Part shown: positions 2,738-47,289 of the stretch, piece by piece
Numbering within the stretch: position 1 is the stretch's first letter
How the letters are laid out: each line of letters opens with the position of its first letter
Sequence record: NC_054928.1
DNA: 64,000 nt
Strand: one strand, 5' to 3'
Source: Escherichia phage vB_vPM_PD112
The notes under the pieces: model-generated
Told to the model about the DNA's origin: nothing
Seen by the model: the letters and a program-made list of their open reading frames with translations, nothing else
Database searches by the model: none
Made by a program: the position numbers and the translations under genes

Positions 2738-4717
2738 ATGACTTTATTATCTCCGGGCATTGAGCTCAAAGAAACTACGGTTCAAAGCACCGTGGTTAAT
2801 AACTCTACTGGTACAGCAGCTTTGGCCGGTAAATTCCAGTGGGGTCCTGCTTTTCAGATCAAACAGGTTACAAATGAAGTAGATTTAGTTAATACTTTTG
2901 GTCAACCTACAGCTGAAACTGCTGACTATTTTATGTCTGCAATGAATTTCTTACAATATGGAAATGATTTGCGAGTTGTGCGTGCTGTCGATAGAGATAC
3001 CGCTAAAAACTCATCTCCGATTGCCGGTAATATTGAATACACAATTTCTACCCCAGGTAGTAACTACGCAGTTGGAGATAAAATCACGGTCAAATATGTT
3101 TCAGATGCTATTGAAACTGAAGGTAAAATTACTGAAGTAGACGTAGATGGAAAAATTAAGAAAATTAATATTCCTACTGCAAAAATTATCGCTAAAGCTA
3201 AAGAAGTCGGTGAATATCCGGAATTAGGTTCTAACTGGACTGCGGAAATTTCTTCATCTTCCTCTGGTTTAGCTGCAGTAATAACTCTTGGAAAAATTAT
3301 TACTGATTCTGGTATTTTATTAGCTGAAATTGAAAATGCTGAAGCTGCTATGACAGAGGTTGGCTTTCAAGCAAATCTCGAAAAATACGGAATTCCAGGA
3401 GTAGTAGCGCTTTATCCAGGCGAATTAGGCGATAAAATTGAAATTGAAATAGTATCTAAAGCTGACTATGCAAAAGGTGCTTCTGCATTACTCCCAATTT
3501 ATCCAGGCGGTGGTACTCGTGCATCTACTGCTAAAACTGTGTTTGGATATGGACCACAAACTGATTCACAGTACGCTATTATAGTTCGTCGTAATGATGC
3601 TATTGTTCAAAGCGTTGTTCTTTCAACAAAGCGCGGTGAAAAAGATATTTACGATAGTAACATCTATATCGATGACTTTTTCGCAAAAGGTGGTTCAGAA
3701 TATATTTTTGCAACTGCACAAAACTGGCCAGAAGGCTTCTCTGGAATTTTAACTCTGTCTGGTGGATTATCATCAAATGCTGAAGTAACAGCAGGAGATT
3801 TAATGGAAGCCTGGGACTTCTTTGCTGACCGTGAATCTGTTGACGTTCAGTTGTTTATTGCGGGTTCTTGTGCCGGTGAATCTTTAGAAACAGCATCTAC
3901 TGTCCAAAAACACGTCGTTTCAATCGGGGATGCTCGCCAGGATTGCTTAGTATTGTGCTCACCACCGCGCGAAACTGTAGTTGGAATTCCTGTAACTCGC
4001 GCTGTTGATAACTTAGTCAATTGGAGAACCGCAACAGGTTCATACACTGATAATAACTTTAATATCAGTTCAACCTATGCAGCAATTGATGGTAACTACA
4101 AATATCAGTATGACAAATATAATGATGTCAATCGCTGGGTTCCATTAGCAGCTGATATTGCTGGTTTATGCGCAAGAACTGATAACGTATCTCAGACTTG
4201 GATGTCTCCAGCTGGTTATAATCGTGGTCAGATTCTTAACGTTATTAAACTTGCTATTGAAACTCGCCAGGCTCAGCGCGACCGTTTATACCAAGAAGCT
4301 ATCAACCCGGTAACTGGTACAGGTGGTGATGGTTACGTATTGTATGGTGATAAAACAGCTACTTCTGTTCCTTCTCCATTTGATCGTATTAACGTTCGTC
4401 GTCTGTTTAATATGTTGAAAACGAATATCGGACGTAGTTCAAAATATCGTTTGTTCGAATTAAACAACGCGTTTACTCGTTCATCATTCCGCACAGAAAC
4501 TGCCCAGTACTTACAGGGAATTAAAGCTCTCGGTGGAATTTATGAATATCGTGTAGTTTGCGATACAACAAATAACACTCCGTCAGTAATTGATAGAAAT
4601 GAGTTTGTTGCAACATTCTACATCCAACCGGCGCGCAGTATAAATTATATCCAACTTAATTTCGTCGCAACTGCTACTGGTGCAGATTTCGATGAGTTAA
4701 CTGGTCTTGCAGGTTAA
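2738..4717 (+). CDS. 18: Tail sheath protein gp18
   Basis: 659-aa ORF, MTLLSPGIELKETTVQSTVVNNSTG..., matches T4 gp18 in length and sequence. Confidence 0.93.
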   Translation: MTLLSPGIELKETTVQSTVVNNSTGTAALAGKFQWGPAFQIKQVTNEVDLVNTFGQPTAETADYFMSAMNFLQYGNDLRVVRAVDRDTAKNSSPIAGNIEYTISTPGSNYAVGDKITVKYVSDAIETEGKITEVDVDGKIKKINIPTAKIIAKAKEVGEYPELGSNWTAEISSSSSGLAAVITLGKIITDSGILLAEIENAEAAMTEVGFQANLEKYGIPGVVALYPGELGDKIEIEIVSKADYAKGASALLPIYPGGGTRASTAKTVFGYGPQTDSQYAIIVRRNDAIVQSVVLSTKRGEKDIYDSNIYIDDFFAKGGSEYIFATAQNWPEGFSGILTLSGGLSSNAEVTAGDLMEAWDFFADRESVDVQLFIAGSCAGESLETASTVQKHVVSIGDARQDCLVLCSPPRETVVGIPVTRAVDNLVNWRTATGSYTDNNFNISSTYAAIDGNYKYQYDKYNDVNRWVPLAADIAGLCARTDNVSQTWMSPAGYNRGQILNVIKLAIETRQAQRDRLYQEAINPVTGTGGDGYVLYGDKTATSVPSPFDRINVRRLFNMLKTNIGRSSKYRLFELNNAFTRSSFRTETAQYLQGIKALGGIYEYRVVCDTTNNTPSVIDRNEFVATFYIQPARSINYIQLNFVATATGADFDELTGLAG

Positions 4718-4729
4718 TTGATTGATTGT

Positions 4730-4743
4730 GGGGCTTCGGCCCC
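4730..4743 (+). terminator. Stem-loop GGGGC-UUCG-GCCCC downstream of gene 18
   Basis: Perfect 5-bp GC stem with UUCG tetraloop; no strong U-tract. Confidence 0.5.
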
Positions 4744-4760
4744 TATTCTCGAGGAAACAA

Positions 4761-5366
4761 GTGATTATTTCTAAGTTTGTTACAATAAAACCAAGAAATC
4801 ATTCAAAAATGTGGTCGACAATTCTAGGATATAAAGTATCATATCATGATACAGTATCTGTTCCAATAGAATTAATGCCAAAGAATAGTAATAAAATAGT
4901 TGACGCTAAATGTGATTTGTGCGGTATTAAATTTAGTAGAAGCATTCAGCTTTTAAATAGAACACCTACACATGCATGTAGAAAATGTAGCATTAAACAA
5001 GTTGCTATTAAAAATTCGGAAGTTCAATCCGGAATAAGCAGACCATGGCAAAGAGGCGATAAACACCCTCGATGGACTGGTAAAAGAAAAGAGTTTGCAT
5101 TATATGCTAGTAGAGTTCATTCTATAACTAAGTCAGCTAAAATAAGAAAAATTTGGTCAAAATGGCCGAATGCTGATAAAATAGGAGTGTGCGGTGTAGA
5201 AGGTGCTTACCAACTCGATCATAAAGTATCTATCAAATATGGATTTGATAATTTAATTCCGCCGGAAATTATAGCAAGCGTAAAAAATTTAGAAATAATC
5301 ACTTGGGAATCTAACCGAGAAAAGTCAAAAAGAAATAGCGTAGATCTTTGGGATTTACTAGAATGA
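4761..5366 (+). CDS. HNH-family homing endonuclease-like protein (free-standing, between genes 18 and 19)
   Basis: CDLCG...CRKC zinc-finger pairs and HNH core AYQLDHKVSIKYGFDN...NLEIITWESNREKS; start uncertain (GTG 4761 with GAGGAA SD, or ATG 4809). Confidence 0.65.
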   Translation: MIISKFVTIKPRNHSKMWSTILGYKVSYHDTVSVPIELMPKNSNKIVDAKCDLCGIKFSRSIQLLNRTPTHACRKCSIKQVAIKNSEVQSGISRPWQRGDKHPRWTGKRKEFALYASRVHSITKSAKIRKIWSKWPNADKIGVCGVEGAYQLDHKVSIKYGFDNLIPPEIIASVKNLEIITWESNREKSKRNSVDLWDLLE

Positions 5367-5373
5367 TTCTAAA

Positions 5374-5391
5374 GGCCTGTTTCGGCAGGCC
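5374..5391 (+). terminator. Stem-loop GGCCUG-(6 nt)-CAGGCC downstream of the HNH ORF
   Basis: Inverted repeat seen directly. Confidence 0.4.
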
Positions 5392-5392
5392 A

Positions 5393-5400
5393 TATAAATA
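5393..5400 (+). promoter_or_regulatory. Late promoter box TATAAATA (distal copy upstream of gene 19)
   Basis: Exact TATAAATA. Confidence 0.5.
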
Positions 5401-5451
5401 CACTATATCCTTAATTCTTTAATTCTATATGCCCTAGGTTAAACATAGGGA

Positions 5452-5459
5452 TATAAATA
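5452..5459 (+). promoter_or_regulatory. Late promoter box TATAAATA (proximal to gene 19)
   Basis: Exact TATAAATA 15 nt before the gene 19 ATG. Confidence 0.6.
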
Positions 5460-5473
5460 CTACAGAGGCTAAT

Positions 5474-5965
5474 ATGTTTGTAGATGATGTAACACGAGCG
5501 TTTGAATCTGGTGATTTTGCTCGACCTAACTTATTCCAAGTAGAAATTTCTTATCTTGGACAAAATTTTACGTTTCAATGTAAAGCCACTGCTTTACCAG
5601 CTGGTATTGTAGAAAAAATTCCAGTCGGATTTATGAACCGTAAAATTAACGTAGCAGGCGATCGTACATTCGATGACTGGACTATTACAGTAATGAATGA
5701 TGAGGCGCATGATGCACGCCAGAAGTTTGTTGACTGGCAAAGCATTGCTGCTGGTCAAGGAAACGAAATTACTGGTGGAAAACCTGCAGAGTATAAAAAG
5801 AGCGCTATTGTTCGTCAATATGCTCGTGATGCTAAAACAGTAACAAAAGAAATTGAAATTAAAGGTCTGTGGCCTACTAACGTGGGTGAACTTCAATTAG
5901 ATTGGGATTCAAACAATGAAATCCAAACCTTTGAAGTAACTCTTGCTCTCGATTATTGGGAATAA
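5474..5965 (+). CDS. 19: Tail tube protein gp19
   Basis: 163 aa, MFVDDVTRAFESGDFARPNLFQVEISYLG..., matches T4 gp19. Confidence 0.93.
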   Translation: MFVDDVTRAFESGDFARPNLFQVEISYLGQNFTFQCKATALPAGIVEKIPVGFMNRKINVAGDRTFDDWTITVMNDEAHDARQKFVDWQSIAAGQGNEITGGKPAEYKKSAIVRQYARDAKTVTKEIEIKGLWPTNVGELQLDWDSNNEIQTFEVTLALDYWE

Positions 5966-42314: not shown

Positions 42315-42618
42315 CGTTATGTTCGATTGAGCTCGCTAATTCTCAACCCGTTCTCTTATGAACTGCTACATATTACTATGCAGACCAGACTATATCACAA
42401 TCCCAGAGGGATTCTCCCCATTTCGAGTCGCTTGACCCTACGTCCGAAGACTAGTCGTTGAACCTTGCTTTGCAATTGTGCATCCTCTTAAAAGTATAAT
42501 CATTTATATTATACTAATTAAAGGTGCAAGCAAAACCTTGGCTGCTAGTTTTCCTATAAAGGACTTTCCAGCAATTAAAGGAGTTTTCGATAAACGTTAC
42601 CGTTTAAAGGCGCATTTT
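42315..42618 (-). ncRNA. Group I self-splicing intron in nrdB (304 nt, no endonuclease ORF)
   Basis: Exon 1 ends ...UCUUUUGCGU; intron ends ...ACAUAACG; joining restores SFA-C-TFNFH in frame; P7-like GACUA/UAGUC pairing in the core. Confidence 0.8.
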
Positions 42619-43294
42619 ACGCAAAAGATACATAAAAACGAATAGCTTCTAAGGCATTAATAACGTGCAAACAGAGGTAAAGAGATTTCATTAAAGCACG
42701 TTTAGCTTCGGCTTCTTGTTTAATAGCTCGGTTTAAACGAAAATCAGCATCAGGAGATTCTTTAGCTAGTTCTACAAATTCTTTAGCATTTTCCCATTCA
42801 CGGGTTTTAATAAGAACATCATCATAATAACGCCCAATGGATTCAGCACGTTTCATAATAGCTTCATCTAATACAATCTCATCAAATACCTTCGATGGAT
42901 CAGTATAAAGATTTCGCATGATATGTGTATATGAACGGCTGTGAATAGTTTCACTAAAAGTCCACGTAGCAACCCATGTATCAAGGCTTGGGTCTGAAAT
43001 TAATGACATAAGTACAGCAGACGGCGCACGACCCTGAATGCTATCCAAAAGTGATTGATACTTCAGATTATTAGTAAAAATATTTTGCTGATACTGAGGA
43101 AGCTTATTAAACTGTGCAGCATCCATCATTAAGTTTACTTCTTCAGGACGCCAGAAAAATGATAAGGACTTCTCTGTAAGTTCTTCAAATACCTTATGTC
43201 GTTGAATATCATAACGTGCAATTCCAAGACCTGAACCGAAGAACATAGGTTCTGTTAAAACATCAACTGGATTTGTATTAAAAACTGTGCTCAT
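42619..43294 (-). CDS. nrdB: Ribonucleotide reductase beta subunit NrdB, exon 1
   Basis: 225 aa, MSTVFNTNPVDVLTEPMFFGSGLGIARYDIQRHKVFEEL... ending ...IRFYVSFA. Confidence 0.88.
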
Positions 43295-46479: not shown

Positions 46480-46741
46480 CATTATGTTCAGATAAGGTCG
46501 TTAATCTTATCCCGGAATTATATCCAGCTGCATGTCACCATGCAGAGCAGACTATATCTCCAACTTGCTAAAGCAAGTTGTCTATCGTTTCGAGTCACTT
46601 GACCCTACTCCCTAAAGGGATAGTCGTTAGGCATTTATGTAGAACCAAAGTCCTACAATTTAGCACGGGATTGTCTACTAGAGAGGTTCCCCGTTTAGAT
46701 AGATTACAAGTATAAGTCACCTTATACTCAGGCCTAAATTA
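46480..46741 (-). ncRNA. Group I self-splicing intron in td (262 nt, I-TevI ORF absent)
   Basis: 5' splice site UUGGGU|UAAUUUAGGCCUGAGUAUAAGGUGACUUAUACUUG...; 3' end ...CUUAUCUGAACAUAAUG|CUUCCAUUU; matches the T4 td intron core minus the ORF loop. Confidence 0.88.
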
Positions 46742-47289
46742 ACCCAAGAAAACATCTACAGAACGTTGATACCACTGCAAATCCAAATAGCCATTACGCA
46801 CATTAAACTGATAGAACATGTGACAAGGCGGTAATGCCATTTGCTTAAGTTCAGCTGGATTCCATGCAGAAACAATTTGACGCCTATCATTCGGCAGTTT
46901 TTTAATACGATCAATAACTTCTATAATTTGGTCTACACCGCCAAAATCACGCCATTGTTTTCCATAAATTGGACCAAGTTCACCGCTATGATATCCTAAA
47001 TCTTTTGCTTGATTTTCGTAATTTTCATCCCAGACTGTTTTGCCTTGAATTAATGAATTATGTTGAATTAATCGCAAATCATTTACGTTAGTACTTCCTG
47101 ATAAGAACCACAATAACTCAGAAATACATGCATTCCAGGCGAGCTTCTTAGTCGTTACTGCAGGAAAACCTTTAGTTAAATCCCAACGTAATTTAGTACC
47201 GAACAAAGCAATTGTTCCTGTGCCTGTTCGGTCATCGGTTTCATAACCGTTTTCCAGGATATCTTTAATTAAAAATTGGTATTGTTTCA

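Follow-up and report, generated by a model that had tools for sequence, protein, structure and literature searches.

What kind of gene occupies the junction between tail sheath gene 18 and tail tube gene 19 in some T-even phages, and did its arrival duplicate the signals that surround it? The locus that raises this question lies in a 64,000-nucleotide (nt) stretch of DNA of Escherichia phage vB_vPM_PD112 (NC_054928.1), hereafter the window, which is a segment of a T-even phage genome whose nearest match is Escherichia phage vB_EcoM_CE1 (99.6–100% identity). In the window, genes 18 and 19 are 756 nt apart, and the gap contains one open reading frame (ORF) on the + strand, which corresponds to ORF19.1 of phage T6. 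An initial annotation of the locus described the ORF as an HNH homing-endonuclease-like gene inserted between two genes placed about 750 base pairs (bp) apart, and regarded two hairpins and two late-promoter boxes (TATAAATA) around it as a duplication left by the insertion. The analysis described here bears out the insertion and the spacing and argues against the duplication. ORF19.1 is probably a free-standing homing endonuclease gene, and it typifies a family, named here after T6 ORF19.1, that resides between the sheath and tube genes. The coordinates of all features are collected in Table 1.

The insertion polymorphism and its exact boundaries are observed directly in an alignment of occupied junctions (the window, T6, PST, PsgM02F, RB10, Pinarejo, and sb3) with empty ones (T4, RB27, RB14, T2, RB68, and AugustSocin). 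The spacer is 116 nt at every empty site, where it reads TAA-TACGGTGC-ATTCTAAAGGCCTGTTTCGGCAGGCCATATAAATAC...GGGATATAAATACTACAGAGGCTAATATG, and in all six of these phages the junction runs from GGTTAA through TACGGTGC into ATTCTAAAGG. The seven occupied sites carry about 650 bp instead of the 8 nt TACGGTGC, and identity with the empty sites comes back exactly at ATTCTAAAGG. The TGA stop codon of ORF19.1 shares its last base with the conserved flank, this base being the first A of ATTCTAAAGG. The boundaries are thus clean and the ORF is a variable component of the 18–19 junction among T-even phages, missing from T4 and the other five empty-site phages, as the initial annotation had supposed when it called the ORF an insertion relative to T4. 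Presence or absence at one fixed site, with flanks that are otherwise identical across the 13 aligned junctions, is a property by which homing genes are recognized.

The signals on the two sides of the ORF have different histories. Both hairpins (at 4730 and 5374) and both TATAAATA boxes (at 5393 and 5452) are found in the sequence, as first described. The hairpin at 5374 is identical in T4, T2, RB14, and RB27 and differs by one base in RB68 and AugustSocin. Because this hairpin and both TATAAATA boxes occur in phages that lack the ORF, matching base for base in the 116-nt spacers, they belong to the ancestral spacer and are not products of the insertion; the proposed duplication has to be abandoned. 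The hairpin at 4730 is absent from the empty sites, is present in both alleles of the insert (A and B, see below), and is the sole hairpin that the insert carries. It takes the position held by the native hairpin in the empty phages, and the two hairpins have the UUCG loop alone in common. Neither is followed by a T-run, and therefore neither scores as an intrinsic terminator. In a repeat search, no target-site duplication was found, nor any clean flanking direct repeat longer than about 10 nt besides the native ATATAAATAC boxes, both of which sit downstream of the insert. Membership of the insert in the class of promoter-stem-loop mobile cassettes was considered and rejected on the finding that no repeat of at least 10 nt flanks it apart from these native boxes. 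The TATAAATA motif occurs 18 times in the window, compared with 8.9 occurrences expected.

The start of the ORF needs a correction. A mechanical call places it at TTG 4722, a start that was rejected because translation from it would read through the hairpin at 4730–4743. The real start is GTG 4761, which is preceded by a GAGG Shine-Dalgarno sequence at 4751–4754 and is the start proposed in the T6 record. In agreement with this start, 29 of 30 homologues open with M-I-I/L.

The protein encoded by ORF19.1 has two parts, and the motifs named in the initial annotation, CDLCG...CRKC and AYQLDHKVSIKYGF...NLEIITWESNREKS, are both found in it. The N-terminal part contains a Cys4 zinc ribbon. Of its four cysteines, C54 never varies among the 30 homologues, C51 and C73 are retained in at least 90% of them, and C76 in most of those in the alignment blocks; the treble-clef model DUF4379 gives weak matches in 12 of the 30 members. 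The ribbon is presumed to be a DNA-binding module. The C-terminal part contains most of the residues that are invariant in the same alignment, namely Y115, G145, Y150, Q151, D153, H154, S157, G161, N176, L177, W182, N185, R186, and K188. The D153-H154, N176, and N185 positions are invariant in 60 distant representatives as well, and they supply the His general base and the two Asn residues that characterize the HNH superfamily. AlphaFold models of the full protein and of residues 100–201 have predicted local distance difference test (pLDDT) scores of 88.5 and 88.1, respectively. Both models contain a strand at 150–154 bearing the D-H pair, a strand at 177–181 bearing N-L, and a helix that starts at 182 and includes N185. 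This order of elements gives the beta-beta-alpha arrangement of HNH enzymes, in which a beta-hairpin followed by a helix forms the metal site.

On these grounds, the HNH assignment made at the outset can be accepted at the level of the fold, with moderate scores: the C-terminal domain of ORF19.1 appears, with moderate confidence, to have an HNH-like fold that lies outside current curated sequence models. The window protein matches no HNH family in Pfam at E ≤ 1, where weak zinc-finger noise is all that is returned. Among the curated HNH models considered (Pfam PF01844, PF13392, PF13395, and PF14279, and those of NCBIfam), HNH_4 reaches E = 0.078 in one of the 30 members, and NCBIfam gives no match. 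The protein matches phrog_5104, a family of unknown function, at E = 6e-83, and its matches to PHROGs labelled 'homing endonuclease' and 'HNH' are confined to the N-terminal zinc-ribbon part. Searches of the PDB by sequence returned zinc fingers, and a profile of the domain gave spurious leucine-rich-repeat matches owing to an IGxLxNLxxLxL-like motif; a Foldseek search against the PDB found nothing significant. The C-terminal domain lacks the zinc-binding CxxC pairs that are usual in many HNH domains.

The domain is nevertheless widespread. Its profile recovers 3,944 representative proteins (E ≤ 1e-3), of which 966 reach E ≤ 1e-10, and most of these relatives have the nuclease domain C-terminal or nearly so. 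Sixty of them were sampled for N-terminal partners, which include DUF7487, resolvase-type and other helix-turn-helix domains (HTH_23/7/28/38), and NUMOD3. Homing endonucleases are usually built in this way, with a conserved nuclease head and interchangeable modules for DNA binding. ORF19.1 has this build, with a nuclease domain and a separate, exchangeable module that probably binds DNA.

The frequency of the insert was estimated from Tequatrovirus records with four 150-nt megablast junction queries, whose alignments crossed a variable patch in gene 18, so that occupancy is the one property for which the counts are usable. Among 498 records, 382 have an empty junction and 115–116 an occupied one, that is, about 23% are carriers and about 77% are empty. 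A tblastn search for ORF19.1 yields 241 records in total, roughly the sum of the 116 occupied Tequatrovirus records and those of the other genera. When IMG/VR was searched for exact junction patterns, 4 empty sites and no occupied one were retrieved, numbers that do not allow a test of association.

The insert exists in two alleles. Allele A, the T6 type, which is also the allele of the window, is found in 68 records, and allele B in 48 (RB3, RB5, RB6, RB7, RB9, RB10, the sb phages, and others). The two alleles are about 90% or more identical in the leader (hairpin, Shine-Dalgarno sequence, and first codons) and in the last ~240 nt; the intervening ~400 nt, which encode the N-terminal half, are ~50% identical. 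This pattern of identity amounts to an exchange of the N-terminal half between alleles A and B. Within allele A, the protein changes little. The window insert and the T6 insert are ~98% identical at the nucleotide level, with 10 synonymous differences and one non-synonymous difference, and comparisons of the window allele with other A alleles give 10–13 synonymous and 1–2 non-synonymous differences. Third codon positions account for 18 of the 20 variable sites among five A alleles. Since the variation falls mostly at third positions, the ORF19.1 protein is maintained by selection, and the gene is, as judged from these comparisons, under purifying selection.

The family is also bound to one place. 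A homologue lies directly 3' of the tail sheath gene in all 11 genera or lineages checked: T6 (Tequatrovirus), VR7 (Gaprivervirus), KMB20 (Karamvirus), Klebsiella 15882-1 (Jiaodavirus), STP4-a (Gelderlandvirus), X20 (Winklervirus), Bp7 (Dhakavirus), Aeromonas AS-zj (Ceceduovirus), Sinorhizobium phiM12 (Emdodecavirus), and Pectobacterium POP12 and Acinetobacter Tonic (genus unassigned in their records). In all of these but phiM12, it also lies ahead of the tail tube gene. In IMG/VR, sheath and/or tube genes are found within 1.2 kb in 53 of 80 metagenomic loci that encode a relative, and all matches that extend from residue 1 of the protein are among these 53; the remaining 27 are matches to the nuclease domain only and are located elsewhere. 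The ORF19.1 family is thus unusually faithful to one site. Sequence conservation is strong over the final 60 residues of the sheath protein in all of these phages, particularly at PARSINYI-LNFVAT. In one locus (L064, IMG/VR 3300009563_000455), the relative is inverted between the sheath and tube genes, the sole such case of the 53.

How might such a gene be expressed, and how might its expression be held in check? A stable hairpin stands 3' of the sheath gene in every genus examined. VR7, X20, Tonic, and Bp7 have a TATAAATA box immediately ahead of the ORF, and Tequatrovirus has none; therefore, read-through from gene 18 is the likely source of the message in the latter. Within the message, the GTG start and the codons that follow it are predicted to pair with a segment near the end of the same coding region. 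The two arms form a 26-nt inverted repeat whose complementarity exceeds the maximum of 18–19 of 26 positions reached by shuffled arms. The resulting helix of ~20 bp joins arms ~500 nt apart within the ORF19.1 coding region. Minimum free energy (MFE) and centroid folds of the 686-nt message both contain the helix (−179.6 kcal/mol, z = −9.3, 20 shuffles); in both, the pairing continues across the Shine-Dalgarno region, and the entire coding region is enclosed in a single domain.

The predicted helix is conserved among GTG-start homologues, which are, among the loci examined, those of enterobacterial phages and that of POP12. In T6, RB10, VR7, KMB20, Klebsiella 15882-1, STP4-a, POP12, and the IMG/VR locus L031, the start region finds its best complement at the homologous position, and each of the seven GTG-start homologues that were folded independently shows the helix in its MFE fold. 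It is missing from X20, Tonic, phiM12, Bp7, and AS-zj, which have ATG or TTG starts, and from 16 of 17 full-length IMG/VR homologues, 15 of them with ATG starts and one (L041) with GTG. Over the 21-pair helix in nine distinct homologues, 92.6% of cells are paired, compared with 32–48% when the partner is slid by 1–3 columns. Two pairs change in a compensatory manner: U-A becomes C-G in Klebsiella 15882-1 and STP4-a through the synonymous changes ATT>ATC and GAA>GAG, and A-U becomes U-A in POP12. Four more pairs vary on one side, three of them only to G-U wobbles and the fourth, a terminal pair, with two unpaired cells. The helix is probably, as a prediction from these folds, a translational throttle for a potentially harmful nuclease. 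In the literature searched, no long-range closing helix of this kind was found described for homing endonuclease genes.

Taken as a homing endonuclease gene, ORF19.1 would act in the following manner. It would be transcribed late by read-through from gene 18, and in some other genera from its own upstream TATAAATA box. The GTG start and the long-range helix, whose partner includes the NLEIITW codons, would keep its translation low. The N-terminal Cys4 zinc ribbon would read DNA, and the C-terminal HNH-like (beta-beta-alpha-metal) domain would nick or cut it. During mixed infection, the enzyme would damage an ORF-less genome at or near the 3' end of gene 18 or at the empty junction, and recombinational repair from the carrier genome would copy the cassette and nearby markers into the empty site.

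A candidate for the target lies in gene 18 itself, in a short patch of near-synonymous change. Between the window and T4, 15 of its 34 nt differ, and one codon, with three of the differences, changes the amino acid. The densest 30-nt bin of the patch has 11 mismatches, compared with at most 6 in any other bin of a comparison that takes in the whole of gene 18 except 199 nt. The peptide that the patch encodes is conserved from T4 to phiM12 and is the most conserved peptide of the sheath, and at least four patch haplotypes occur among the 13 phages. This pattern would fit selection for resistance to the endonuclease or co-conversion with the cassette, and the patch is an unproven candidate for the endonuclease target or for a co-conversion footprint. 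The empty junction is an equally good candidate, because it is identical in the six empty phages and is destroyed by the insertion. Patch haplotypes other than that of T4 create TATAAATT, which is one base off the late-promoter box. Considered as a promoter of the ORF, this sequence is also present in the empty RB14, T2, and RB68 and is missing from the occupied sb3. A joint reading of helix and patch is offered tentatively: the helix, by pairing the Shine-Dalgarno/GUG start region with the codons of the catalytic NLEIITW strand, may act as a translational gate, passed by nascent transcripts or when a ribosome opens the helix, and the address of the family may be the DNA that encodes ARSINYI-LNFVA, with the patch as its resistance or co-conversion footprint.

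Several observations weigh against the homing endonuclease interpretation or against parts of it. No experiment on the ORF19.1 protein was found in the literature searched. The patch does not follow occupancy strictly: RB14 and T2 are empty yet have a non-T4 patch, and sb3 is occupied yet has a T4-type patch. As for the helix, both arms encode conserved peptides and 12 of the 21 pairs never vary, so that protein conservation could account for much of the pairing; covariation amounts to three cells in two pairs, and 7 of 500 shuffles match the observed score.

A nuclease gene of this kind need not copy itself, and ORF19.1 might be a domesticated enzyme that serves the phage, either as a helper in packaging or recombination, of the kind known from HK97-like phages, where HNH proteins aid the terminase, or as a weapon against competing phage or host DNA. 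Its two best structural matches, the Geobacter Gme HNH and phage GVE2 HNH proteins, are small nicking enzymes of this sort, the gene belongs to the late morphogenesis/packaging cluster, where it is two genes past the terminase gene, and the purifying selection described above would suit a useful protein. We regard domestication as unlikely: about 77% of Tequatrovirus, including T4 and T2, have neither the gene nor any other match to it, a patchy distribution that makes a needed function improbable, and the position of the gene is tied to the sheath gene and not to the terminase gene. It might also be argued that the nuclease has no part in the spread of the insert, which would then be a passive cassette shuffled by recombination between hairpin and promoter motifs. 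Many genera do have a hairpin ahead of the ORF and a hairpin and late promoter after it, and promoter-stem-loop cassettes have been described for T4-type phages (PMC2839356, PMC4122927). This account has little chance of being right, given that no repeat longer than about 10 nt is common to the two hairpin regions, that there is no target-site duplication, and that the empty site already has the downstream hairpin and promoters. Moreover, it leaves unexplained why one nuclease family adheres to one site from Tequatrovirus to Emdodecavirus.

The lack of a match to any curated HNH model, together with the missing CxxC pairs, would also agree with a zinc-ribbon protein that binds DNA or RNA, for example as a late regulator, and whose HNH-like domain no longer cuts. 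Such a loss of activity is very improbable, as the Asp-preceded His general base and the two Asn residues are invariant in 30 close and 60 distant relatives, and the domain is fused to NUMOD3 and HTH modules in the manner of homing nucleases. A free-standing homing endonuclease gene remains the explanation that we favor, and in this explanation enzymatic activity, target site, homing, late expression, and a role of the helix in regulation are inferred.

Table 1. Features of the gene 18–gene 19 region in the window.
Feature	Coordinates	Strand	Basis and remarks
Gene 18, tail sheath	2738..4717	+	Pfam Gp18_dom_I, Phage_sheath_1, Phage_sheath_1C
Hypervariable near-synonymous patch, codons for ARSINYI(T/Q)LNFVA	4633..4666	+	Comparison with T4
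Inserted cassette, 648 bp, in place of 8 nt TACGGTGC	4718..5365	+	Junction alignment, 7 occupied and 6 empty
Cassette-borne hairpin GGGGC(UUCG)GCCCC	4730..4743	+	Predicted fold; 13 nt past gene 18 stop
Shine-Dalgarno GAGG	4751..4754	+	Sequence; 6 nt ahead of GTG; paired in predicted mRNA fold
Predicted helix, 5' arm, GTG start and codons 2-8	4758..4783	+	24/26 complementary to 5280-5305; −3 to +23
ORF19.1, 201 amino acids, GTG start	4761..5366	+	Corresponds to T6 ORF19.1 / T6ORF160
Cys4 zinc ribbon C51, C54, C73, C76	4911..4988	+	30-homologue alignment; AlphaFold pLDDT >90
HNH-like catalytic core D153 H154 ... N176 ... N185 R186 K188	5217..5324	+	
Predicted helix, 3' arm, within codons for VKNLEIITW	5280..5305	+	Repeat search; same partner in homologue folds
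Native intergenic hairpin GGCCUGU(UUCG)GCAGGCC	5374..5391	+	Fold z = −3.0; outside insert
Native late-promoter box TATAAATA, copy 1	5393..5400	+	Found in 6/6 empty-site phages
Native late-promoter box TATAAATA, copy 2	5452..5459	+	Found in 6/6 empty-site phages; 14 nt ahead of gene 19 ATG
Gene 19, tail tube	5474..5965	+	Pfam Phage_T4_gp19

Other elements were noted in the window and in related phages. In the window, gene 17 (large terminase, 115–2706) consists of two ORFs, broken at the Walker-B site. The first ORF has MIYIDE at the break and ends DAQK*, and the second contains an NNVESHN/CAFIPNF junction. An ORF between the two pieces (713–1333) has a CxxC..CxxC region and a TnsA-like endonuclease domain (PF08722, E = 8e-10). 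The break looks like a naturally split intein, with an N-piece of ~41 and a C-piece of ~106 amino acids, accompanied by a free-standing endonuclease gene. Such a 'fractured gene' layout has been described by Dassa et al. 2009 (PMC2677866), including a gp17-like case from a metagenome. Gene 17 is intact in T4 and T6, and the split arrangement is found in 15 phage records, in which it is annotated only as two terminase pieces and an endonuclease or hypothetical protein. Two group I introns lie on the − strand of the window, at 42366–42635 and 46528–46751 (Rfam RF00028, above threshold at 68.6 and 73.8 bits).

The late-gene block that holds ORF19.1 gathers further inserts in other phages. KMB20 (locus L021) carries additional ORFs on either side of gene 19, in the 19.1–19 and 19–20 intervals (3212–3904 and 4400–4981), and Bp7 (locus L029, 3769–4350 and 4408–5630) has an HNH endonuclease annotated in the 19–20 interval. 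For Bp7 and Ptacy1496 (locus L003, 3150–4401), the annotation splits the portal gene into two pieces. In the T6 record MH550421 (89579–90391; positions 1–356 of locus L002), T6ORF154, noted there as identical to an 'HNH endonuclease' protein, lies just upstream of gene 14, where T4 has gene 13.

ORF19.1 has been on record for a long time. The T6 gene was deposited in 1994 under this name with a proposed GTG start, and the VR7 homologue is called gp19.1 after it. Most records label it 'hypothetical protein', and a few recent ones 'HNH endonuclease', 'homing endonuclease', or 'type II restriction endonuclease'. In the literature searched, no paper that studies the function of ORF19.1 was found, and the reviews of T4 mobile elements there do not mention 19.1. 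Much of the marker exclusion and mosaicism seen among T-even phages is due to free-standing homing endonuclease genes, and the studied T4 examples are the Seg, Mob, and intron-encoded enzymes. ORF19.1 is an ordinary kind of phage mobile element in this company, and it forms a separate, uncharacterised family.

ORF19.1 resembles MobA-E of T4, which are free-standing, intergenic nuclease genes with an HNH-type active site, sporadically distributed among T-even phages. The domain order differs. MobB and MobC carry their HNH domain (PF01844) N-terminally, at residues 24–50, and MobB has C-terminal NUMOD1 repeats, whereas ORF19.1 has the zinc ribbon N-terminal and the nuclease C-terminal, with neither PF01844 nor NUMOD1. 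With hhalign probabilities of 0.1–0.2% against MobB and MobC, the label 'Mob-like' in the initial annotation does not hold for the protein. A further likeness concerns expression: that of mobE is reported to be limited by an RNA hairpin over the ribosome-binding site. That hairpin is local, whereas the predicted control of ORF19.1 is a helix that closes a loop of ~500 nt. SegF and SegG, examples of intronless homing in T4, resemble ORF19.1 in that the endonuclease gene adjoins an essential gene. Their cleavage site can lie at some distance inside the neighboring gene, and flanking markers are co-converted. The Seg enzymes are GIY-YIG nucleases, and ORF19.1 is HNH-like.

Among small HNH nicking endonucleases, Gme HNH (PDB 4h9d) and GVE2 HNH (PDB 5h0o) are 8–18% identical to ORF19.1. 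They are single-domain proteins, whereas ORF19.1 has an additional, presumed DNA-binding half and is dispensable in most relatives. The GVE2 enzyme works with the terminase. Membership of ORF19.1 among the terminase-associated (HK97-like) HNH proteins was considered and rejected on its distribution in Tequatrovirus (~77% without the gene) and its place beside the sheath gene and not the terminase gene. RNA pairing that hides a start codon is known from the maturation gene of phage MS2 and from start-site hairpins of T4 e, soc, and I-TevI. By analogy, the paired start region of ORF19.1 would restrict translation to nascent or specially initiated transcripts. In contrast to these cases, the pairing partner in ORF19.1 is ~500 nt downstream in its own coding region, and no promoter was identified between the two arms.

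Five findings on the 18–19 junction come out of the analysis: the exact insertion boundaries, the existence of two alleles whose N-terminal halves are exchanged, a large clade of nucleases without a curated model, fidelity to the sheath-tube junction across distant phages, and a conserved predicted long-range RNA helix over the start codon. The nuclease domain, for which Pfam has no model, has about 4,000 representative relatives. Carriers of the two alleles (T6 and the RB3 group) are amenable to laboratory crosses with T4 and T2, and, together with the fixed address, this makes the family a convenient system in which to follow the evolution of target choice in homing enzymes. Genes of this kind are also relevant to therapeutic coliphage cocktails, where they bias the recombination of phages that infect together. 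If the prediction is true, the long-range helix would be a new way to throttle a toxic selfish gene.

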